Shown: positions 8,451 to 23,365, numbered from the stretch's first letter. The stretch is 60,000 nucleotides of DNA from Mobula hypostoma (GCF_963921235.1 NC_086097.1:56794001-56854000), one strand, 5' to 3'. Notes: a model not told the origin generated them from the letters alone. Program-made: numbers and translations.

Positions 8451-9214
8451 AGGTGTATGGAGGGTGTGAAGACTTAACATGTCATCACCATAAACCAGTA
8501 TTTAGAAAAGGATTTACAAATGGTCCTGTGGATAAGAAAAGTTACCCTAGAGGAGGATGAAATTTAAATTACTTTTCTGGGATGAGAATTCAAATGAGAT
8601 TATTTTAGTCTTGGTGTATTGTTACAGAAGATTATCCATACTCAAGGCACATGGCTTTGGAATGAAAAGGTTAAAGCTGATATTGACAGTTTGATTGGGC
8701 ACTTCAGTTAATCATGGATACTTGAGGCTTGCCTCTTGTTTTATTATCAACAATAAACTTGATCATTTTAATTATTACTGTTTTATTCAAAAGTCTGCAT
8801 TAAAAACAAAGTTCAAAGTTCAAAAATTCAAAGCAAATTTATTATTAAAGTATGTAAATGTCATAATACACTACTCAGAGATTTATTTTCTTACAGGCAT
8901 ACACAGCAGAACAAAAAATACAACAGAAACAATGAAAAATTACACATTAAGACTGACAAGCTGGCTGCTTGGTTATGTGCAAAAGAAGTCAAACTGTGGA
9001 ATTGCAAAAAAAGAGCAAAGCATAAATAATTAAATAAGTAATACTGAGAACATGAGATGAAGTGTCCTTGAAAGTGAGTCCGTAGGTTGTGGAATCAGTT
9101 CAGTGTTGCGGTGAGTGAAGTTACCCACACTGGATCCGAAGCCTGCTGGTTGAAGGGTAATAACTATTCCTGAACCTGGGGGTGTGGGACAGGAGGCATG
9201 GAGACAGACTAGCT

Positions 9215-9846
9215 CCAATTGGCATCGATGGATCTGGGGTTCAGAGGGTGGACAGCTTTAAGTTCCTCGGCATAAATATCACCGAGGATCTCACGTGGTC
9301 TGTACACAACAGACCTCTTTCACCTCAGACGGTTGAAGAAGTTTGGTGTGGGCCCCCAAATCCTAAGAACTTTCTACAGGGGCTCAATTGAGAGCACGCT
9401 GACTAGCTGCATCACTGCCTGGTATAGGAACCATACTTCCCACCATCGCAGGACTCTACAGAGAGTGGTGCGGACAGCCCAGTGCATCCGTAGATGTGAA
9501 CTTCCCACTATTCAGGACGTTTACAAAGACAGATGTGTAAAAAGGATCATTGGCGACCGGAGTCACCACAAACTGTTCCAGCTGCTACCATCTGGGAAAC
9601 GGTACCGCAGCATAAAAGCCAGGACCAACAGGCTCCGGGACAGCTTCTTCCACCAGGCCATCAGACTGATGAACTCATGCTGACACAACTGCATCTCTAT
9701 GTTATACTAAATATCCTGTTATACATACTATTTATTATAAATTACTATAAATTGCAGATTGTACATTTAGACACTGACGTAATGTAAAGATTTCTACTCC
9801 TCATGTATATGAAGGATGTAAGTAATAAAGTCAATTCAATTCAATT
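9215..9846 (+). mobile_element. Rex1/Babar-like LINE 3' fragment
   Basis: FKFLGINITEDLTWS...LLPSGKRYRS...RLRDSFFHQAIRLMN; AATAAA followed by a (TCAAT)n tail. Confidence 0.9.
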
Positions 9847-10436
9847 CCTTCCCAATGACCAGTAGAGAGATTCTGGATATGAATCATTGCAATATCCTAA
9901 ATATACTGCTCCCTTTTTAAAATTATATAATGATTTTGCAAATTTTAATCTGGTGCATAGATAAAATTTTATCTATTATTCAACGGTCTGGACTCTTTAT
10001 CCATCATTATTCAATTAGTAACATTCTCACTTCAGAGCCAAAAACTCTAGGATCAGGTCCCTAGCCATAGCTTTATGGATGTCTAGACTGGAGTACCGCT
10101 TTACAGATGAAGTAATGAACTAAGGCCTCAGCTGTTCACTTGGGCATACAGTAATGAGCTCTTGGCAATCTTCCAAAGAGGAGAAACATTATCCCTGTTG
10201 TCTTGCCATTATTTATTCCTCAATCAGCACAATTTTAGAAAAATTGAATTTGTCATCTTTCACTTTGTGGGAACTTGCTGTCCACAATTTGGTGGCTAAT
10301 TTTTATCAACAACTTCACTGTAAATCAATATGGCACATTCCAAAATTGAGTAATATGAATACACGTATGATAAACAAAAATATTCAATTTACAAAAGAAG
10401 AGTTTATTTAGACATGACTTAATTAGGAAGAAGCTG

Positions 10437-13119
10437 ACCGGAATTGCACTGAGAGCGGTAAGCGTAAAGGAGGGGGGCTTGCGGTTCTGGTAAATAACAG
10501 ATGGTGCAATCCTGGTCATATTACGATCAAGGAATGTGTTTGTAGCCCGGATATTGAACTCTTTGCTGTTGGACTCCAGCCATATTATTTGCCAAGGGAA
10601 ATCTCGCATGCAATTGTGGTTGTTGTGTACATCCCCTCCTCTGCCAACCCGACGTCGGCATGTAACATCATTTACACTGTCATAGCCAGATTACAAACCC
10701 AGCACCAGAGTGCCCTCATTACCATCTCGGCTGACTTCAACCATGATACCATGGCTAAAACACTGCCCAACTTCACGCAGTATGTGAGCTGTACAACCAG
10801 AGGGGAGAGGACTCTGGATTTGATGTACGCTAACGTTAAGGATGCATACAGCTCCTCTCCCCTCCCCCCATTGGGAAGGTCAGATCACAACCTGGTGCAT
10901 CTAAAACCCTGCGACGTGCCTCTGGTGAAGAGTAAACCTGCAACCTCAAGGACAGTGAGGAAATGGTCGGCGGAGGCTTATGAGGAGGTCTAGGGTTGTT
11001 TTGAGGTGACAGACTGGCAGGCACTCTGTGAGCCACATGGAGAGGATATTGATCACTGATTACATCAACTTCTGTGTGGACTGCAATGTTCCGACAAGAA
11101 CTGTCCTTTGTTATTCAAATAACAAGCCATGGATAACAAAGGACATTAAGGACATCCTGAACGCTAAAAAGAGGGCGTTTAGAGATGGAAACAGGGAGGA
11201 GCTGAGGGCAATACAGAGGGACCTGAAAGCCAGGATCAGGGAGGTTAAAGACAGGTACAGAAGGAAGCTTGAGTGGAAACTCCAGCAGAACAACATGAGA
11301 GAGGTCTGGAGTGGGATGAGGACCATCACTGGGTTCCGGCAAACTAGCAACAGAGGAGCTGAAGGCAGTGTGGACAGGGTCAACGAACTTAACCTGTTCT
11401 TTAACAGATTTGACATTGTGGCCCCTTCCCATCCCCCACATGAGTCATCTGTGGTCGGCCCCCAACCAACACATATTCCACTCTCCCTCCTACCCCTCCT
11501 CACAGTCCCCCACCCTGCTCTCATGACTATACCCCTTCCCCACACGAAACCACCACTGTGGGCTTCACGGCTGAACAGGTGAGAAGACAGCTGAAACGTC
11601 TCAACCCAAGCAAGGCTGCAGGACTGGATGGTGTCAGTACCAGGGTGCTCAAAGCCTGTGCCCCTCAGCTATGTGGAGTACTTTGCCATGTATTCAACCT
11701 GAGCCTGAGGTTCCAGAGGGTTCCTGTGCTGTGGAAGACGTCCTGCCTCGTCCCTGTGCCAAAGACGCCACGCCCCAGTGGCCTCAATGACTACAGACCG
11801 GTGGCATTGACCTCCCACATCATGAAGACCCTGGAGAGACTTGTTCTGGAGCTGCTCCGGCCTATGGTCAGGCCACACTTAGATCCCCTCCAGTTCGCCT
11901 GCCAGCCCCGACTAGGAGTTGAGGATGCCATCATCTACCTGCTGAACCGTGTCTACGCCCACCTGGACAAGCCAGTGAGCACTGTGAGGGTCATGTTTTT
12001 TGACTTCTCCAGTGCGTTCAACACCATCCACCCTGCTCTGCTGGGGAAGAAGCTGACAGCGATGCAGATGGATGCTTCCCTGGTATCATGGATTCTTGAT
12101 TACCTGACTGGCAGACCACAGTACATGTGCTTGCAAAACTGTGTGTCTGACAGAGTGATCAGCAGCACTGGGGCTCCACAAGGGACTGTCTTGTCTCCCT
12201 TTCTCTTCACCATTTACACCTCGGACTTCAACTACTGCACAGAGTCTTATCATCTTCAGAAGTTTTCTGATGACTCTGCCATAGTTGGATGCATCAGCAA
12301 GGAAGATGAAGCTGAGTACAGGGCTACGGTAGGAAACTTTATCACATGGTGTGAGCGGAATTATCTGCAGCTTAATGTGAAAAAGACTAAGGAGCTGGTG
12401 GTAGACCTGAGGAGAGCTAAGGTACCGGTGACCCCTGTTTCCATCCAGGGGGTCAGTGTGGACATGGTGAAGGATTACAAGTACCTGGGGATACGAATTG
12501 ACAATAAACTGGACTGGTCAAAGAACACCGAAGCTGTCTACAAGAAGGGTCAGAGCCATCTCTATTTCCTGAGGAGACTGACTGAAGTCCTTTAACATCT
12601 GCCAGATGATGCTGAGGATGTTCAACGAGTCTGTGGTGGCCAGTGTGATCATGTTTGCTGTTGTGTGCTGGGGCAGCAGGCTGAGGGAAGCAGACACCAA
12701 CAGAATCAACAAACTCATTCGTAAAGCCAGTGATGTTGTGGGGATGGAACTGGACTCTCTGACGGTGGCGTCTGAAAAGAGGATGCTGTCCAAGTTGCAT
12801 GCCATCTTGGACAATGTCTCCCATCCACTACATAATGTACTGGTTGGGCACAGGAGTACATTCAGCCAGAGACTCATTCCACCGAGATGCAGCACAGAGC
12901 GTCATAGGAAGTCATTCCTGCCTGTGGCCAACAAACTTTACAACTCCTCCCTTGGAGGGTCAGACACCCTGAGCCAATAGGCTGGTCCTGGACCTATTTC
13001 CTGGCATAATTTACATATTACTATTTAACTATTTATGGTTTTATTACTATTTAATTAATTATGGTGCAACCGTAATGAAAACCAATTTCCCCCGGGATCA
13101 ATAAAGTATGACTATGACT
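10437..13119 (+). mobile_element. 5'-truncated Rex1/Babar-like LINE, ORF2 (APE endonuclease + RT) with a few disablements
   Basis: GRSDHNLV endonuclease motif, FFDFSSAFNTI, PQGTVLSPFLF, KFSDD; (ATGACT)n tail; 9-bp TSD AAGAAGCTG at 10428-10436 and 13120-13128. Confidence 0.95.
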
Positions 13120-13626
13120 AAGAAGCTGTGGCTGTCACCTGTAGTCTTGAACACAGTTTTATAGAAGGCCTTGTTTTAAAGATGGAGCTATATCTGTAAT
13201 ATTAAAGGATTATAGTTTGCTAAAATCATTAATGATCTGAATGGCCCTGAATTGGGTCCAATTCACAAACCTGCATTTGCAGAGTTTAACCACCTATCCT
13301 AAACTGTTATGGAGATCGAGGCCAAAACAATCTCATAATCCATATCTGGGTGACGTCCTCCCAGGCTGAGACTTGGCTTTTGACAGTGTCTTTGCTGGTC
13401 ACTGATATTTAAAAATTAAAGCTAAAGCTGGAGATTAATTTTAAGAAATCACACTCTAGCCCTTAACTTTTGACTCGGGTTTGATAAACCATTGACATGA
13501 TTGGGATTGTGCTTCTTATACCAACCACCCTAAATGTAAAACTGAGGGCGAATTGCAGGTTATTATCTGCACTCTGCTCTGGACTCCGTGGTATCGAGAG
13601 CAGAAAGAGAAGTTGAAAGTTGCATT

Positions 13627-15520
13627 ACTCTCCTGTTTTAGCCAGTTCTCAGGTTATAAGCTGAATTTACATAAGAGTGAACTTTTTCCTTTGAATAATT
13701 GGATATCAACTAATTCTAACCTTCCTTTTAAAATTGTAAGAAACCAATTTACTTACTTAGGTATAACAATTACTAAAAATTATAAGTGCTTATTTAAAGA
13801 AAATTTTCTTACTCTATTGAATTATGTAAAAAGGACACTATCAAATTGGTCACCTCTTTCATTATCATTGATTGGTCAAATTAGTTGTATTAAAATGAAT
13901 ATTTTACCTAAATTTATTTATCTTTTTCAGGCATTATCTGTTTTTATCCCAAAATCTTTTTTTGATTCTCTTGATTCTATTATATCATCCTATATATGGA
14001 AAAATAAGTGTTCTAGACTAAACAAAATTCATCTTCAGAAAGCTAAAAAGAATGGAGGGCTAGCTTTACCAAACTTTAGGTTTTATTATTGGGCAGTTAA
14101 TATACGCTATCTTACATTTTGGTTATATTACATTAATCGTGAGGATTGTCTGATGTGGGTTTCTTTAGAAGCTAACTCTGTTAATAAATTTTCTATTATT
14201 TCTCTTCTTGGATCCTCACTTCCTTTATCCCTGAGTAAGTTAACTGCTAATCTGGTAGTTAAACATACTATGAGAATTTGGGTACAATTCCAAAAATACT
14301 TTGGCGTATTGAGATTTTCTCTTTCAAGTCCCATTTTCTCTAATTATTTTTTTAAATCTTCTATGACAGATGTGGCTTTTAAAGAATGGGATAGATTAGG
14401 TATTAAATACTTCCAGGACTTGTTTGTGGAGGGAAGTTTCCTTTCGTTTGAGCAACTGTCAGCTAAATATAGCTTACCCAAAACTCACTTTTTTCGATAC
14501 CTACAAATAAGAGACTAATCACGGTCTCAAATATGTACACTTCCTAAAAGTCCTGATAAGAATCTACTAGATGTAATTTTCAATTTGAAACCTTTTTATA
14601 ATGGATCTATATCTAATATTTATAATGTGTTGCTGGGAATGAGAAGTGTTCCTTTAGATAAAATTAAAAATCTTTGGGAACAAGTCTTACAGACTTCAAT
14701 TTCTGAGGGAACTTGGAATGAGATTTTTAAATTGGTTAACACTTCATCGTTATGTGCCCGTCACTCTCTCCTTCAATTTAAAGTGGTCCATATGACCAAG
14801 GATAAGTTGTCTCACTTTTATTTGGATATATCTCCTTATTGTGATAAATGTAATAATGGAGAAGCTTCACTCATTCATATGTTTTGGACATGTCCGAGTC
14901 TTGAAAAATATTGGAAAGAAGTATTTCAAACCTTCTCGGTACTTTTTAAAGTAAATTTTAAGCCTAATCCTTTGACCATTTTATTTGGTATTGTTAGAGG
15001 AAAGGATATTATTTTGGAGGAAAGGATATTATTTTGGAGAAATCTGATTTGCACGTTTCGGCTTTTATTTCTCTTATTGCTAGGAGGACGCTCTTGCTTA
15101 AATGGAAAGATGCAATCCCGCCCACACACATTCAATGACTGCGTGATGTGATGTCATGTTTAAATTTAGAGAAGATTCGATGTTCAATTTCTGAATCTAA
15201 TCAAGACTTCCAAACATTGTGGGGACCTTTTTTGAATTATTTTCAAAACCTTTGATTTGCCGTTAAAGCACAGATGATGTCTAATAATATACTTTTCTTC
15301 TTTCTTCTTCTTTACTAATCAGCTTTGGTCTTGGTGGTGGGTTAAATTTTTTTTCCATATAATAAATTTACTATACTGTATTTCAATATTATGAATTAAT
15401 CAATTTGTATGAATATAGAGTAAAGAGTTTATATGTGCGATTCAGTATAATATATTTGAGATATTTCTTTCTTGAACTCTGTATTCTCCTATGTAGAAAA
15501 TCAATAAAAATATTGAAAAA
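13627..15520 (+). mobile_element. 5'-truncated L1/Tx1-clade LINE (post-RT region and C-terminal zinc knuckle)
   Basis: FSQFSGYKLN..KSE, YLGI, KMNILPKFIYLFQ, GGLALPNF, CDKC..HMFWTC; AATAAA plus A-rich tail; about 12-bp TSD GAA(A/G)GTTGCATT at 13615 and 15521. Confidence 0.9.
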
Positions 15521-16704: not shown

Positions 16705-16900
16705 AAGGACAGGCTCCAGGACAGCTTCTTCCACTAGGCCATCAAACTGATTAACTCACGCTGATTTGAGTGTATTTCTATGTTACATTGTCTGTTCTAT
16801 TTATTATAAATTACTATGATTGCACCTTGCACTTTAGACAGAGGCGTAACATAAAGATTTTTACTCCTCAAGTATGTGAAGGATGTAAGAAATAAAGTCA
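16705..16900 (+). mobile_element. Short Rex1-like LINE 3' end
   Basis: Closely matches the 3' end at 9627-9835. Confidence 0.85.
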
Positions 16901-17230
16901 ATAATATTCCATTTCTACCATCCTTAATTGCCCATGAAAGGTGGTGGCAAGTTGCCTTCTTAAACTCTTGCCTTTCTTTGTGCTGGGCCATGGAGTGTTA
17001 GAGCACAATGAGTGAGTAGCTGCAGTATATTTTTGTCGATAGTATACACTGCAGTATATACAGAGAAGGAAACAAACTCTCAAGGGATAAAATCAGAGCT
17101 TAGCTTTCCATTCAAGTCGGGTTTATTAGCATATGTGCAAATATGGTGAGGTACAGGGACAACGAAGAATTTGCTTGAAGCAGTATCACAAGCATTTAGG
17201 TTCAGACAACAGTAAATATTCATACATTAA

Positions 17231-17428
17231 TATACTGTATGGCCTGCAGTATAATAAGGGCCTACTTTATGTTGTAGGGACACGTCGTTGCATGCACTAT
17301 TAGGCACGTATTGATCTGTATGTGTGTGCTGAGTTCGGTTTCTGTCAGTAAAGAACCATGAACCTTTACTCCCGTCTCCAGTGTATTTATTAGTAGCATT
17401 GCTGTGTAACCAGGCCACATACACAACA
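17231..17428 (+). repeat. 5' LTR (198 bp)
   Basis: Aligns end to end with 20684-20907; followed by the PBS. Confidence 0.95.
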
Positions 17429-17431
17429 AAT

Positions 17432-17441
17432 TGGTGACGAG
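17432..17441 (+). promoter_or_regulatory. Primer-binding site TGGTGACGAG (tRNA-Ser(GCT)-like, 1 mismatch)
   Basis: 3 nt after the 5' LTR; near-complement of the CCA 3' end of tRNA-Ser(GCT), which would give TGGCGACGAG. Confidence 0.75.
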
Positions 17442-18910
17442 TTTAATGAACCTACATGGTATTGGAACGCCGTGTTTTAGTTGATAACGACACTCAGAAG
17501 AAGAGCGCGAGGAACGAGCCAAGGAGTGGGAGAAGGAGGCAGAGCGAGGCCATGGGTCTGAAAGGAAGCAGGAGCACTGCTGGGGTTGGGAATGTCGGGA
17601 GACTAAGAGACACAGTCGGAGCCGCAGCACGTCAAGGCGAGACCACAGCCAGCGCTGACCCCAGGGACTGAGGGTCTGCCTGCCCCAGAAGGGAGATAAA
17701 AAGGAACGACACACGCACATCTAGACGGAGTGCGCTCGTGGCGCTAGCAAAAAGTACACGTGAGTCAGAAAGGAAAATAAGGGGAGAACAGGGCTTAATT
17801 AACATAACAAGGATGGTGATGATTGGAACCATTACAGCATTTGATAGTGGCATTGAAGACTGGGCAACTTACATTGAAAGAGTGGAGTTATATTGTGAGG
17901 TTAACGATGTTAAGGATGAAAAGAAAGCCAGCGTCTTACTCAGTATTATGGGAGCAAAAACATACGGCCTGCTGTGGAGCTTGTTAACTCCTGAAAAGCC
18001 AGCTGACAAAACGTTCAAGCGAATAGTAGACACTCCAACAACATTTAAACCTCAAACCACTGGTCATTGCTGAAAGATTTAAATTTCACAATCGGAATCA
18101 GAGTAAAAATGAAAGCACTTCTGAATATTGTGCTGAATTGCACAAACTATCAGAACATTGTCAATTTGGAGCTGGTTTATCAGACGCATTGAGGGACAGA
18201 TTAGTGAGTGGCATGCACTGTGAAACCACCCGGAAAAAGCTTCTGTGTGAAAGAGACCTTACATTTGAGAAAGCGCTAAACATTGCAATATCATTGGAAA
18301 CAGCAGCACGGGGTGCTTCAGAGATACAACAAAAATCTCTGGAATATGCTACGAATAAAATGTCACTGAACAGAAATGAAGGAAAGAAACGTTACCGTTG
18401 TGGGAACATGTCACATGACCCTGAGGACTGTTGGTTTAAAGACAAAGAATGCAGAAGCTGTGGCAAATGGGGCCACATTGGCAGAGTATGCAAAGCTAGT
18501 CAACAGCAGAAAAAGGTCAAAATACAGAGAAACAAGAAACCCCAGAAGGGAAAATACAACAATGTACACAAAATGAAAGAAAGCAGTTCTGATGAAAACG
18601 ACTCAGACAAAAGTGAATTGTCCTGTCTGCAACTTCACAGCGTGAAAGAGACAGATGATCGAAGAGTAATATGGATCACTCCACAAGTGGCAGGCGTGAG
18701 ACTGAAAATGGAGTTGGACACAGGCTCAGCTTTAACAGTGATCTCTGTACACGACTACAAACGACCGTTTTCTCACATACCTCTGAAACGAACTAAACTA
18801 CTGCTAAAGACTTAAACACGAGGAATTCTGCAGATGCTGGAAATTCAAGCAACACACATCAAAGTTGCTGGTGAACGCAGCAAACCAGGCAGCATCTCTA
18901 GGAAGAGGTA

Positions 18911-18954
18911 CAGTCGACATTTCGGGCTGAGATCCTTCGTCAGGACTAACTGAA
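18911..18954 (-). ncRNA. Second, mutated minimal hammerhead ribozyme
   Basis: Reverse complement reads CTGACGA-AGGATCTCAGCCC-GAAAT-GTC, with stem II and III substitutions. Confidence 0.55.
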
Positions 18955-19077
18955 CTCCCATCGAAGAGAAGATTTAAACTTCTTCAGTGTAGGCACCACA
19001 GAAGAGGCTGTCTTCTCCTATCATTTTGGATCTCCCCCTCCCCCTCCCACTTTGAAATCTCTTACTAGCTCTTCCTT

Positions 19078-19119
19078 CAGTTAGTCCTGACGAAGGGTCT
19101 CGGCCCGAAACGTCAACTG
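19078..19119 (+). ncRNA. Minimal type I hammerhead ribozyme (Penelope-type)
   Basis: CTGACGA-AGGGTCTCGGCCC-GAAAC-GTC core; CAGTT/AACTG stem I. Confidence 0.75.
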
Positions 19120-19393
19120 TACCTCTTCCTAGAGATGCTGCCCGGCCTGCTGCGTTCACCAGCAACTTTGATGTGTGTTGCTAAAGACTTACATAGGACA
19201 GAAAGTGCACCCCAAAGGTAAAATTAAAGTGATAGTGACCTACAGAGACAAAACACAGCAGCTGAACGTCTATGTACTGAAAAATGGAGGATCACCATTG
19301 CTGGGACGTGAATGGCTCAGGAAAATCCAGTTGGATTAGCACACCATCAAGGCACCAGATGTGTCAACAAAGGAGGGCAGCTCAGCGGGGAAG

Positions 19394-20329
19394 ATGTCCG
19401 CAGCTCTCCACTCACCCATTGTCGACTATTACAACGATGAGGAAGAGCTAGAGAGCATCGACAATGAGGACAAACGCAGTATCCATGGCCGCGACTCAAA
19501 TGAAGATACAGAGGATGCAAGGAAGACAGATATTGCCAATAAGTAGGATGATGAAGACTACCTGGAAGTAAAAGAGCAGATGTACCAGGAGAAGTTGACG
19601 TCTCTCAAAAGACAGCTACAGCAGTTACAGGAAGGCACTTTACAGGAGTACCAGAAAAGGATGAAGAAACTAGGTCAACAACACATGGAAAGAATATGAA
19701 ATGCTGAGCTTTTTCTGCAACTGGAGACAGAACAAGTTGAAAGGAATTATATTAAAGAGAAGAAAGCAGCAGTGAAGGAATCTGAAAATAAAAAGATTGA
19801 GTTAGAAGAAAAGAAAAAGATGATTGAGAATGAGAGGCTAACAATGGAACTCACAGGAGATTCTGTGGAGGTAAAGCCAATAATAACTAGGAAACTAAGG
19901 AGGAGACCTAATGACCCTGCTCCAATTACAGACAAAAGATGAAAACCTGCACCTGTGCAGTTAAATTACTTGTTAGCAGATGAACAGATAATGGAAGATC
20001 TTCGAACTCTCAATAAGCTTAAATCTCCGAAAAGACCAGCACCTCCGTCTTCTCCTGAGCATCTTCCCAGCACTCCTGCTGAATCACCAGCACAAAGATA
20101 TGAAGCACAAATAGAAGATGGAAAGTTATATTGCGATAAGAGATGGTATCATAAAGGTCAGGCTATCTATTTGGAATCTAGGGAGAATACGAAGATTGGC
20201 TGTGTAATTAGCTCAGTTGGAACAAATGAGATATTGCTAAGGAAGACAAGTGAAAGCACAAAGATGCATATATATGTAGGACAGCTGCACAGAGGAGTCT
20301 TCATTATACGGAGGCGATCTACTGCCTAG
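19394..20329 (+). pseudogene. SUDS3: Processed (intronless) SUDS3 retrocopy, Sin3 histone deacetylase corepressor complex component SDS3
   Basis: MSAA...[34 protein letters not shown]...[10 protein letters not shown]...[20 protein letters not shown]...IIRRRSTA*; one frame throughout, with stops at 19544, 19697 and 19940; 3'UTR with ATTAAA at 20415. Confidence 0.95.
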
Positions 20330-20435
20330 AACTCTTAGCAAGTTGGAGGCGCACATCTTCTTAACTCCCTATGCTCATAGGTCAACTTTTCATGACTTTT
20401 ATATGGAAATCTGTATTAAAACAAACAAATTTATT

Positions 20436-20491
20436 GACAGACGTTACCCAGAGAGGCAGAGTATACCCCCCTCCCGAGACTTGAGTTATAA
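20436..20491 (+). pseudogene. Residual Gypsy integrase C-terminal tail
   Basis: Translates DRRYPERQSIPP..RLEL*, resembling the RRYP.R.R.PP.RL ending of Gypsy pol. Confidence 0.65.
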
Positions 20492-20670
20492 ATGAGTCTT
20501 AGACTAAAAGTAAAAAAAAGGCTTGTTATAATGATATTATTATGTTACTTTGTTGTGATTTGATATTATTAAGTTACTAAGTAAACAAATTGTAGGTGTT
20601 TGTATGTTAAGGGTAGACGTATTTGTTTAGCTTAATGACCCAGTAAAAAAAGTTGATACACTATTAAAAT

Positions 20671-20683
20671 AAAAGGGGAGGAG
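20671..20683 (+). promoter_or_regulatory. Polypurine tract AAAAGGGGAGGAG
   Basis: Immediately precedes the TG start of the 3' LTR. Confidence 0.9.
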
Positions 20684-20907
20684 TGCACTGTATGGCCTAC
20701 AGTTATAATAAGGGACTACTTTATGTTGTAGGGATATGTCACTGCATGCGCTAATAGGCACGTATTGAGCATGTGCTATTAGGTGTGTATTGATCTGTAC
20801 GTGTATGCTGAGTTTGGTTTCTGCCAGTAAAGAACCATGAACCTTAGCTCCCATCTCCAGTGCTTTTATTAATAGCATTGTTGTGTAACCAAGCCACATA
20901 CACAACA
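20684..20907 (+). repeat. 3' LTR (224 bp, includes an extra 25-bp tandem unit)
   Basis: TG...CA termini; matches the 5' LTR. Confidence 0.95.
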
Positions 20908-21299
20908 ATTAAAGTTATGCAAGTTATACTACATTATACAAGGCAATGAAAGAAATTGAGGAAAACAAGACATTGGTGCAACAAAAAACAGTTAAGTCCA
21001 CAGTAGTACAAGAGATGTTATGTGGCTAAGGTGTGGTTCGTTTATGGAGTCATTGAACAGCAATATTCCTGTGACATACTTATAACATGCCCTCTGCTAA
21101 GCAATCATCACTATCTCACTGATCCAATTCGAGTTATATTTTTTTAAAAATGAAGCCATTTCGTTCGATAAGAAGTGCACTTGTATAAACATAAAATTGC
21201 AAGTTACAGCTAAACTTCGAGGAAAATCAATACATTGCTGGTCCTGTACATCCTTCACAAAATAACGCACTGCATTCAACCATCCAACAACCTGCAGCC

Positions 21300-21760
21300 A
21301 TCAGCAGGTTGAACTTGACACTCCAAAACTCCCGTTCCACGTGACGCTCCACACTCGCCTCAGATGCAAAGAGAAGCTGATCTTTTAGTCTACATTAGTG
21401 CCTGAAAAAGTCGAAAATTCTCGATAAGTTAATCAAAAAAATTCATTGAGAAAGAACGCACACAAAGAGGAGAAGCTCTTGAGCAGTAGTGGAAAACGCA
21501 ATCAGGCAGTAGGGAAGACAGATCAAGCGGAGGCTGAGGGTCCTGGGTGGGGTGGAGGACGGGGCCTACAGGTTCAGGCGGCTGCTGTTGTGGACGGTGT
21601 CTGCGGACCGGGGTGGGAGCGCAGCTGCAGCATGCCGCTGTTTGAAGGGCTGGGCACCGGGGGCGAGAAGACGGCTGTAGTGATCGATCTGGGAGCCGCA
21701 TACACAAAGTGAGTCGCGGGATGCACGGAGGGTGGGCGCCTGTGGGTTAACACCGAATGG
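21300..21760 (+). promoter_or_regulatory. ACTR10 promoter / CpG-rich first-exon region
   Basis: GC- and CpG-rich relative to the flanks; CACGTGACG E-box/CRE-like motif at about 21338. Confidence 0.6.
21632..21708 (+). CDS. ACTR10: ACTR10 coding exon 1
   Basis: [25 protein letters not shown](K); donor GTGAGT. Confidence 0.96.
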
Positions 21761-22219: not shown

Positions 22220-23365
22220 GAATAGCTATGTTAGTATGCTGTTTATTGACCATAACTCAGCATTTAGCACCATCATTCCCACAGTCCTGATCGAAAAGCT
22301 ACAGAATCTGGGTCTCTGTACCTCCCTCTGCAACTAGATCCTTGGCTTCCTAACCAGCAGACTATAATCTGCGTGGATTGGAAATAACATTTCCACCTTG
22401 TTGACGATCAACACTGGCACACCTCAAGGATGCATCCTTAGCCCACTGCTCTACTCCCTCTGTACCATGAATGTGGCTAGCCATAGTTCAAATACCATCT
22501 GTAAATTTGTTGATGATACAACCAGTTTTGGCAGAATCTCCGATAGTGACAAGAGGACGACAAAGCGTGAGCTAGTTGTGTGTTGTAGTAGCAACAACCT
22601 TGCACTCAACATTGTGGACTTCAGAAGGGGTAAGACAAAGGAACACAAACCAATCCTCATAGAGGGATCAGAAGTGGAGAGAGTGAGCAGTTTCAAGTTC
22701 CTGGGTGCCATATCTCTGAGGACCTAGCCTGAATGCAACAATGCTGCAGCTATAAAGAGAGCAGAACAGCGGCTATATTTTATGAGGAGATTTGGTATGT
22801 CACCTAAAACACTTGAAAACTTCTAAAGATGTACCGTGGAGAGCATTCTGACAGGCTGCATCACCGTCCGATATGGGGAGGCCAACTGCACAAGATTGAA
22901 GTAAGTTGTAAAATTAGTCAGCTCTATTATGAGTTCTAGCCTCTGTAGTAGCCAAGGTATCTTCAAGAAGCGGTGCCTGAGGAAGGTGGTGTCCGTTGTT
23001 AAGGACCCCCACCACCCAGGACATGCCCTCTTTGCATTGTTACCATCAGGAAGGAGGTACAGAAGCCGAAAGACACACACTCAGCGATTCAGGAACAGCT
23101 TCTTCCCCTCAGCCATCCAAGTTCTAAATAGACATTGAACCCATGAACACTACATCAACTACTTTTTATTTCTGTTTTTGTACTACTTATTTAATTTAAC
23201 TATTTTATATATACATATTTTTAAAATTAATTATATATATATATATGCACATTTAATGTAATTCAGTTTTTTCCTATATTTATCATGTATTGCATTGTAC
23301 TGCTGCTGCAAAGTTAACAAATTTCACGTCATATGCCGGTGATATTAAATCTGATTCTGATTCTA
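22220..23365 (+). mobile_element. Rex1-like LINE RT/3' fragment
   Basis: [36 protein letters not shown]; (ATTCTG)n tail. Confidence 0.9.

Follow-up and report, generated by a model that had tools for sequence, protein, structure and literature searches.

How does the complete, intronless coding sequence of a host gene come to stand in the place of a retrotransposon's polymerase? This question is raised by an element at positions 17226-20912 of a 60,000-nt stretch of Mobula hypostoma DNA (the whole of which is called the window, with positions counted from its start), which we read directly over 16900-21300. The element is a long terminal repeat (LTR) retrotransposon of the Ty3/Gypsy type, and its cargo corresponds to SUDS3, the gene for the chromatin corepressor subunit SDS3. 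A preliminary description, made from the sequence alone, had attributed this arrangement to double template switching during reverse transcription. We compared the element with its relatives in the window's own genome (3.48 Gb, 200 contigs), with the host SUDS3 gene, and with an autonomous Gypsy partner. The best explanation, which we hold to be very probable, is that a Gypsy element captured SUDS3 mRNA by template switching and that the product was then amplified as a non-autonomous family.

Structure of the chimeric element

All the parts named in the preliminary description were found in the window sequence, each at or a few bases from the place given for it, and they could be read there in the order proposed, i.e. 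target-site duplication (TSD), LTR, primer-binding site (PBS), gag-protease, SUDS3, integrase tail, polypurine tract (PPT), LTR, and TSD. The features are as follows, where PR and RT stand for protease and reverse transcriptase, UTR for untranslated region, and CDS for coding sequence.

17226-17230, plus strand: left TSD, ATTAA, matching 20908-20912; the 5-bp duplications of other copies differ
17231-17428, plus strand: 5' LTR, 198 nt, starting TATA (TGTA in other copies) and ending ACAACA
17432-17442, plus strand: PBS, starting with TGG 3 nt past the 5' LTR; TGGTGACGAGT in the window copy
17813-18814, plus strand: gag and the N-terminal part of the protease; ATG at 17813, two CCHC knuckles, DTGS, frameshift at about 18030-18073
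about 18815-19184, no strand assigned: hairpin repeat insertion of about 370 nt with 107-nt inverted arms, private to the window copy
19185-19381, plus strand: C-terminal part of the protease and PR-RT linker in the Gypsy pol frame, homologous to autonomous loci L031-L042 up to 19381
19375-19381, plus strand: 5' junction microhomology GGGCAGC, present both in the Gypsy linker and in the 5'UTR of host SUDS3
19382-19393, plus strand: host SUDS3 5'UTR, 12 nt, from comparison with host exon 1 (locus L046)
19394-20329, plus strand: SUDS3 CDS, intronless, 311 codons, in the same frame as gag-protease
20330-20442, plus strand: SUDS3 3'UTR, 113 nt, the final 7 nt of which, GACAGAC (20436-20442), form the microhomology at the subfamily A 3' junction
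20443-20491, plus strand: last codons of Gypsy pol (C-terminal tail of the integrase), with an indel and the stop TAA at 20489-20491
20492-20683, plus strand: Gypsy 3' untranslated region, ending in the PPT AAAATAAAAGGGGAGGAG (20666-20683)
20684-20907, plus strand: 3' LTR, 224 nt, TG...CA
20908-20912, plus strand: right TSD, ATTAA, pairing with the left TSD

The Ty3/Gypsy hallmarks are present, namely TG...CA LTR ends, a PBS, a PPT, and a short TSD, with the 5' LTR of the window copy starting with TA instead of TG. The PBS reads TGGCGACGAGG in less decayed chimera copies and in autonomous copies, a motif that we presume to be like the complement of the tRNA-Ser 3' end. About 17 pol codons are left behind SUDS3, close to the 18 or so estimated beforehand; natural autonomous copies end their pol with ...QGRRYPERQRRPPQRLEL and a stop. 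The two LTRs of the window element share 88-89% identity in ungapped blocks (Kimura two-parameter distance, K2P, 0.113), and the 5' LTR is short by one 25-nt tandem-repeat unit relative to the 3' LTR. Pfam recognized the protease (RVP, 24.0 bits, cutoff 20.7) in the same region of a less decayed sister copy; when seven short stretches of reading frame from the window copy itself were examined, Sds3 was recognized in one, and gag and protease in none.

The window copy is one ancient, decayed insertion and is dead. Its SUDS3 frame contains in-frame stops at 19544, 19697, and 19940, gag is frameshifted, TGG has become TAG at 19338-19340 in the PR-RT linker, and the hairpin repeat interrupts the protease. 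The three SUDS3 stops, the protease insertion, and the frameshift add detail to the preliminary description.

The cargo and its parental gene

The frame at 19394-20329 matched Pfam Sds3 with 32.9 bits (cutoff 25.4) and the SDS3 chains 7sxi (1e-35), 4zqa (2e-28), and 2n2h (5e-07) of the PDB, and the three solved regions of SDS3, i.e. the dimerisation helix, the Sin3-interaction domain, and the C-terminal domain, are recognisable in it. The top database protein was Mobula birostris SDS3 (name given by the source), with 85% identity over 100% of the query. These matches make a solid case that the cargo is SUDS3, derived from the SUDS3 locus rather than from a paralogue.

In a protein alignment with host-type SDS3 of rays, sharks, and chimaera, every retrocopy-type protein showed an 8-residue deletion, an S>G change, and a P>T change. 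The deletion (ELKENLIA) corresponds to 24 nt, is in frame, and is common to the whole family, being located after window position 19798. Because all three differences are common to all retrocopy-type proteins, they point to a single capture.

The host gene was not recognised by DNA similarity, for which retrocopies filled the best 40 matches (one row was later seen to be the host last exon), and a 46-nt exact pattern with at most 2 mismatches returned 78 matches, the host locus not among them. We located it by means of a degenerate pattern for the ELKENLIA residues, which are absent from the retrocopies. Two places matched, one of which contained two SUDS3 exons with an intron between them; the host last exon and 3'UTR were found behind an intron acceptor, and exon 1 with the 5'UTR ahead of a GT donor. 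The host SUDS3 gene is about 59 kb long and lies on a different contig from the window. At four exon borders that carry introns in the host, the cargo is seamless and therefore derived from spliced mRNA. The idea that the whole SUDS3 mRNA had been taken up is correct for the CDS, which is complete, and has to be given up for the two UTRs, both of which are truncated.

Host and copies are close in sequence: 96.8% identity over 439 nt with one copy of subfamily B (defined below), and 91-95% nucleotide identity (median 94.0%) with 21 copies over 450 comparable positions of the open reading frame (ORF). Over these 450 positions, the near-fixed changes relative to the host comprise three CpG transitions, all of them synonymous, and a P-to-T replacement, two further near-fixed differences being alignment artefacts at exon edges.

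The autonomous partner

The gag ORF of a sister copy (P0122) showed up to 63-68% identity with Gypsy polyproteins of about 1310 residues ("K02A2.6-like" according to the source), including 63% with the gag of the 1315-residue polyprotein P0124, in which Pfam finds the order gag-asp_proteas, RVT_1, RT_RNaseH, and rve. A genome search with P0124 returned 12 decayed loci with gag, PR, RT, RNaseH (RH), and integrase (IN), matched over residues 2-1315. These 12 partner loci are 85-93% identical in nucleotide sequence to the window element across the LTR, leader, gag, and protease.

The homology breaks off at position 19381 of the window in 12 of 12 loci and restarts at 20417-20443 in 10 of 12. About 2.7 kb of pol has therefore been replaced rather than displaced, and SUDS3 stands in place of RT-RNaseH-integrase just as had been read from the window. 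The same comparison corrects the assignment of about 19340-19393 to a short GC-rich leader: this segment is Gypsy sequence in the pol frame up to 19381, and only the 12 nt of 19382-19393 belong to the host 5'UTR.

A 1201-nt query from the partner pol gave 1623 candidates with 89-92% identity. By rough candidate counts (1623 vs 860, see below) the partner is about twice as abundant as the chimera, with similar divergence. The element appears to be a non-autonomous Ty3/Gypsy (Metaviridae) derivative, presumably dependent on this partner. One partner copy (L039) has an extra segment at the protease-RT border, near oriented position 1260-1367.

Junctions and subfamilies

With both parents available in the same genome, the alignment to the autonomous Gypsy element and to parental SUDS3 proposed in the preliminary description resolved the junctions at single-base level. 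The 5' junction, marked by a stroke, reads as follows.

Partner: ...GGAGGGCAGC / AAGGCTAC
Chimera: ...GGAGGGCAGC / TCAGCGGGGAAGATG
Host exon 1: ...GGCGGGCAGC / TCGGCGGGGAAGATG

The microhomology GGGCAGC spans 7 nt at this junction, and 9 of 10 positions match if three bases upstream are counted. At the 3' end the copies fall into two subfamilies, A and B, the window copy belonging to A. In subfamily A the host 3'UTR (...TTATTGACAGAC / tgaag) and the partner (...TTCAGGACAGAC / GTTACCC) share the 7-nt match GACAGAC. Subfamily B, which accounts for 14 of the 40 scored matches and 10 of the 20 copies chosen for fetching, extends about 225 nt further into the host 3'UTR than A and joins the partner 24 nt further 3'; its junction adjoins a 7/10 similarity (CCGGACAATC vs CCGGAGAGGC). 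As A holds partner sequence missing from B, and B holds host 3'UTR missing from A, neither can be derived from the other by deletion alone.

At the two types of 3' junction alike, the host 3'UTR breaks off in the middle of its sequence. Some 100 nt of 3'UTR ending just after ATTAAA had been proposed; 113 nt were found, and their end is the microhomology, not a polyadenylation site. Both the host 3'UTR and subfamily B read through the ATTAAA just upstream of the A junction, and this motif does not function as a poly(A) site here. The statement that SUDS3 has no poly(A) tail or TSD of its own extends to the family, neither being present at any junction of the window copy and the 20 fetched copies. 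The SUDS3 segment thus has neither the 3' poly(A) nor the own TSD by which a processed pseudogene made by a long interspersed nuclear element (LINE) is recognised.

A family of independent insertions

A query across both junctions (19300-20500) gave 860 candidates, the best 40 of which were scored and lie on many contigs with 91-93% identity; this and the other candidate counts are rough, first-look values and not copy numbers. Detailed comparison was made of the window copy and 20 fetched copies, i.e. 21 of at least 860 candidates. The order LTR-gag-PR-SUDS3-tail-LTR and both junctions are common to 20 of 20 fetched copies, and RT and IN are absent from all 21.

Of the 14 elements whose two ends were placed (the window copy and 13 others), every one has a 5-bp TSD of its own, with 9 perfect duplications and 5 matching at 4 of 5 positions; one further copy was left out of this set because its 5' end could not be placed. 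With a separate TSD for each element, the chimera has moved as a unit, in agreement with the earlier suggestion that it integrated as such. Several loci with different TSDs, which according to the preliminary description would show a mobile SUDS3-carrying family, were indeed found: 20 further copies share the junctions, and those with both ends placed have TSDs of their own.

Pairwise distances average 7.34% among A copies, 7.39% among B copies, and 7.35% from A to B copies. The copies form a star-shaped tree, with internal branches near zero and terminal branches of about 0.035-0.055. In 13 elements, the LTR-LTR K2P distances range over 0.05-0.13, and over 0.03-0.10 if CpG sites are left aside. 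The chimera appears to have spread in one burst, reaching hundreds of copies or more.

For the window copy, a contig from a second organism spans 17000-17260 with 6 of 261 letters different (about 2%) and reaches 29 nt into the LTR. This overlap, which is below our 31-letter bridging rule, hints that the insertion is older than the split from that organism. The run of a third organism contained family words, with no bridging contig listed.

Differences in length between the LTRs of one element also recur in the family. In 6 of 11 full pairs (the window copy, L012, L013, L014, L020, and L024), the LTRs differ by one 25-nt repeat unit, as read from gap counts of 25-31, and the 5' LTR is the shorter one in 5 of these 6. 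Its repeated occurrence in independent insertions makes slippage in the course of reverse transcription a likelier cause than indels acquired afterwards, in what is a small sample. One SUDS3 copy (L019) contains a nested insertion (oriented 692-2089) with RT-like ORFs inside the gag region.

Reading frame, decay, and possible function of the cargo

The SUDS3 ATG lies in the gag-protease frame, and the sequence from the end of the protease to this ATG is free of indels in 19 of the 21 copies. In one copy, the frame is open from the protease into SUDS3, and the gag, PR, and SUDS3 ORFs share one frame. By this agreement of frames, the founder element encoded a Gag-PR-SUDS3 polyprotein.

A chromatin corepressor subunit fused in frame to gag-protease is intriguing, and its function would be hypothetical. 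The cargo could have been useful to the element if Gag-PR-SUDS3, or an SDS3 variant set free from it, disturbed Sin3/HDAC silencing, took it over, or directed integration. In keeping with such a role, the CDS is complete and joined to gag-PR in frame with few indels ahead of the ATG, one copy retains the single frame, the family-wide 24-nt deletion is itself in frame, all three solved SDS3 regions are recognisable, and the chimera reaches about half the candidate number of its partner. However, an in-frame fusion and an in-frame deletion each have a one-in-three chance of arising, and the ratio of nonsynonymous to synonymous substitution (dN/dS) gives no trace of purifying selection: pairwise values for the cargo (210 pairs from 21 copies) were 0.59 in the true frame and 0.52 and 0.69 in shifted-frame controls. 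This test was made without a consensus sequence, and it has almost no power for the active phase, since in a star-like tree almost all change took place after insertion. A query with the natural cargo ORF gave 1908 candidates; among 127 scored matches, 63 were near full length and 4 of these 63 were stop-free, which fits a pattern of neutral decay. Taken together, the data fit copies that decay neutrally, with no sign of purifying selection on the cargo. We consider a useful cargo unlikely, and it is likewise doubtful that the SDS3 part, 8 residues short in its dimerisation coiled coil, acted on the Sin3/HDAC machinery as a decoy or tether.

Several "SDS3-like" gene models of two Mobula species (P0003, P0004, P0005, P0006, P0110, and P0121) show the 8-residue deletion of the family, and protein P0110 has protease-linker sequence upstream of the SUDS3 start. 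It is likely that these gene models are in fact decaying cargo of the transposon. Among annotated proteins of 82-263 residues, a search for protease-SUDS3 fusions gave 13 matches, all confined to the protease part.

Origin of the chimera

Template-switch capture would have taken place in a virus-like particle, within a single round of reverse transcription. Close to the pol end of the element RNA, RT would have switched to a spliced SUDS3 mRNA packaged alongside, entered it within the 3'UTR, copied it to 12 nt before the ATG, and gone back to the element RNA at the protease-RT linker. In this way, about 1.05-1.3 kb of SUDS3 would have taken the place of about 2.7 kb of RT-RNaseH-integrase. The resulting chimera would have retained the LTRs, PBS, leader, gag, protease, and PPT; as these cis signals are kept, its RNA could have been mobilised in trans, i.e. 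packaged, reverse-transcribed, and integrated by the proteins of the autonomous partner. For subfamily A, the simplest path would be an extra switch at GACAGAC from a B-type RNA to helper RNA, which would place B before A. After its insertion, the window copy would have gained the repeat insertion, the frameshift, and the stop codons. The 7-nt microhomology at both subfamily A junctions supports the double template switching put forward in the preliminary description.

Several points weigh against this account. Close examination covers only 21 of at least 860 candidate copies, and the comparison with the host only 450 of the 936 positions of the cargo ORF. The 3' junction of subfamily B has no exact microhomology, just the 7/10 similarity nearby, and the tree does not settle the order of the two subfamilies. 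Mobilisation in trans by the partner is what we infer from shared cis sequences and similar divergence. Lastly, the evidence for template switching between RNAs, as opposed to a microhomology-driven DNA rearrangement of an element already bearing a SUDS3 retrocopy, is indirect.

A DNA route of this kind would begin with a LINE-made SUDS3 processed pseudogene inserted into Gypsy pol, followed by microhomology-associated deletions that removed pol, the poly(A), and the inner TSD, and then by amplification. LINE RT fragments are common near the element, microhomology also marks DNA end joining, and the RNA step is seen only indirectly. Such a history requires an insertion and at least two precise deletions, compared with a single reverse-transcription cycle, and neither a poly(A) tail, nor an inner TSD, nor extra pol sequence is retained in the 21 copies examined. 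Moreover, the reciprocal sequence content of A and B points to repeated template switching and not to stepwise deletion. We therefore regard the pseudogene route as very unlikely. An assembly chimera, with junctions that do not exist in the animal's DNA, can practically be dismissed, since the same junctions occur in 20 independently placed copies and 40 scored matches, contigs from a public run bridge both flank-LTR borders of the window copy with zero differences, and Mobula "SDS3-like" proteins carry the family deletion, one of them reaching into protease-derived sequence.

Other features of the window

The repeat inside the protease has arms at 18848-18954 and 19076-19182 that are 93% complementary, and a direct repeat of 10-13 bp, TGCTAAAGACTTA, lies on either side of the insertion. 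None of the 20 other family copies contains this insertion. In the runs of three organisms, the contig depth of this repeat is in the millions, with contig ends at about 18813 and 19184, and pieces of it adjoin several other fetched loci. It is probably a very abundant element resembling miniature inverted-repeat transposable elements or short interspersed nuclear elements (MITE- or SINE-like).

The surroundings of the chimera consist of transposon debris, with no obvious gene at the insertion site. LINE-type RT-like sequence occurs in long stop-free frames on both sides (9000-15200 and 22300-22800).

Relation to known captures and significance

In replication-defective, helper-dependent gag-onc retroviruses, a spliced cellular CDS replaces pol in frame with gag, the cis signals are kept, and the enzymes are supplied by a helper. 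The SUDS3 chimera resembles them in that pol is replaced by a spliced CDS fused to gag, with cis signals retained and a presumed dependence on a helper. It differs in being a germline, intracellular Gypsy element, instead of an infectious retrovirus, with no env, with a corepressor cargo that shows no sign of selection, and its outcome was genomic amplification instead of cell transformation.

LTR-mediated retrocopies of animals, and hence the mechanism, are known from Tan et al. (2016, Genome Res 26:1663, PMC5131818), where the mechanism papers on retroviral gene capture by Goodrich and Duesberg (1990) and Swain and Coffin (1992) are cited. In the sections of that paper available to us, such cases are characterised by intronless host sequence within an LTR element, flanking element parts that are discontinuous, microsimilarity at the fusion points, no poly(A), no own TSD, and both LTRs present; the window structure has every feature listed there. 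Most of the cases described cover part of the transcript (median 26%) and are represented by one or few insertions. By contrast, the SUDS3 chimera, from a cartilaginous fish, has a complete CDS, an in-frame gag-protease fusion, hundreds of copies or more, and two 3'-junction subfamilies. Maize Bs1 and HERV-K/FAM8A1, as cited in the same sections (PMC5131818), are also LTR elements with captured host sequence and junction microsimilarity; Bs1 consists of fragments of several genes and HERV-K/FAM8A1 of a single processed pseudogene, and for neither of them do these sections speak of a family with hundreds of copies. In the literature searched, a limited collection, we found no published SUDS3-carrying LTR element. 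The SUDS3 chimera is unusual in that its CDS is complete and fused in frame, and in how far it was amplified.

The genome of M. hypostoma contains a further LTR chimera, carrying RBM25 (L047, G000:C1:5777066-5780137), which showed no similarity with either the window element or any of the 12 partner loci. Capture of host mRNAs has therefore occurred in at least two LTR lineages of this genome that are unrelated to each other.

The SUDS3 chimera offers a base-resolved case of LTR-mediated capture in a vertebrate, with the parent gene, the partner, and two junction variants all recoverable from one genome, and it grew into a large family instead of staying a single pseudogene. If the cargo did have a function, a retrotransposon would have stolen a subunit of the chromatin-repression machinery, and the edge gained by a non-autonomous element would help to account for its having reached about half as many copies as its helper. 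The finding also bears on retrocopy counts. According to the part of a recent preprint accessible to us (bioRxiv 10.64898/2026.06.26.734816), SUDS3 is among the most retrocopied parental genes in cartilaginous fishes, and retrocopy numbers are linked to non-LTR (LINE) content and to filtering after insertion. The SUDS3 retrocopies counted there are probably the same copies, tied in that work to LINEs and here to one Gypsy capture. At least in the Mobula lineage, the SUDS3 retrocopy count of cartilaginous fishes may thus reflect one capture multiplied by a transposon, rather than many retropositions or selective retention.

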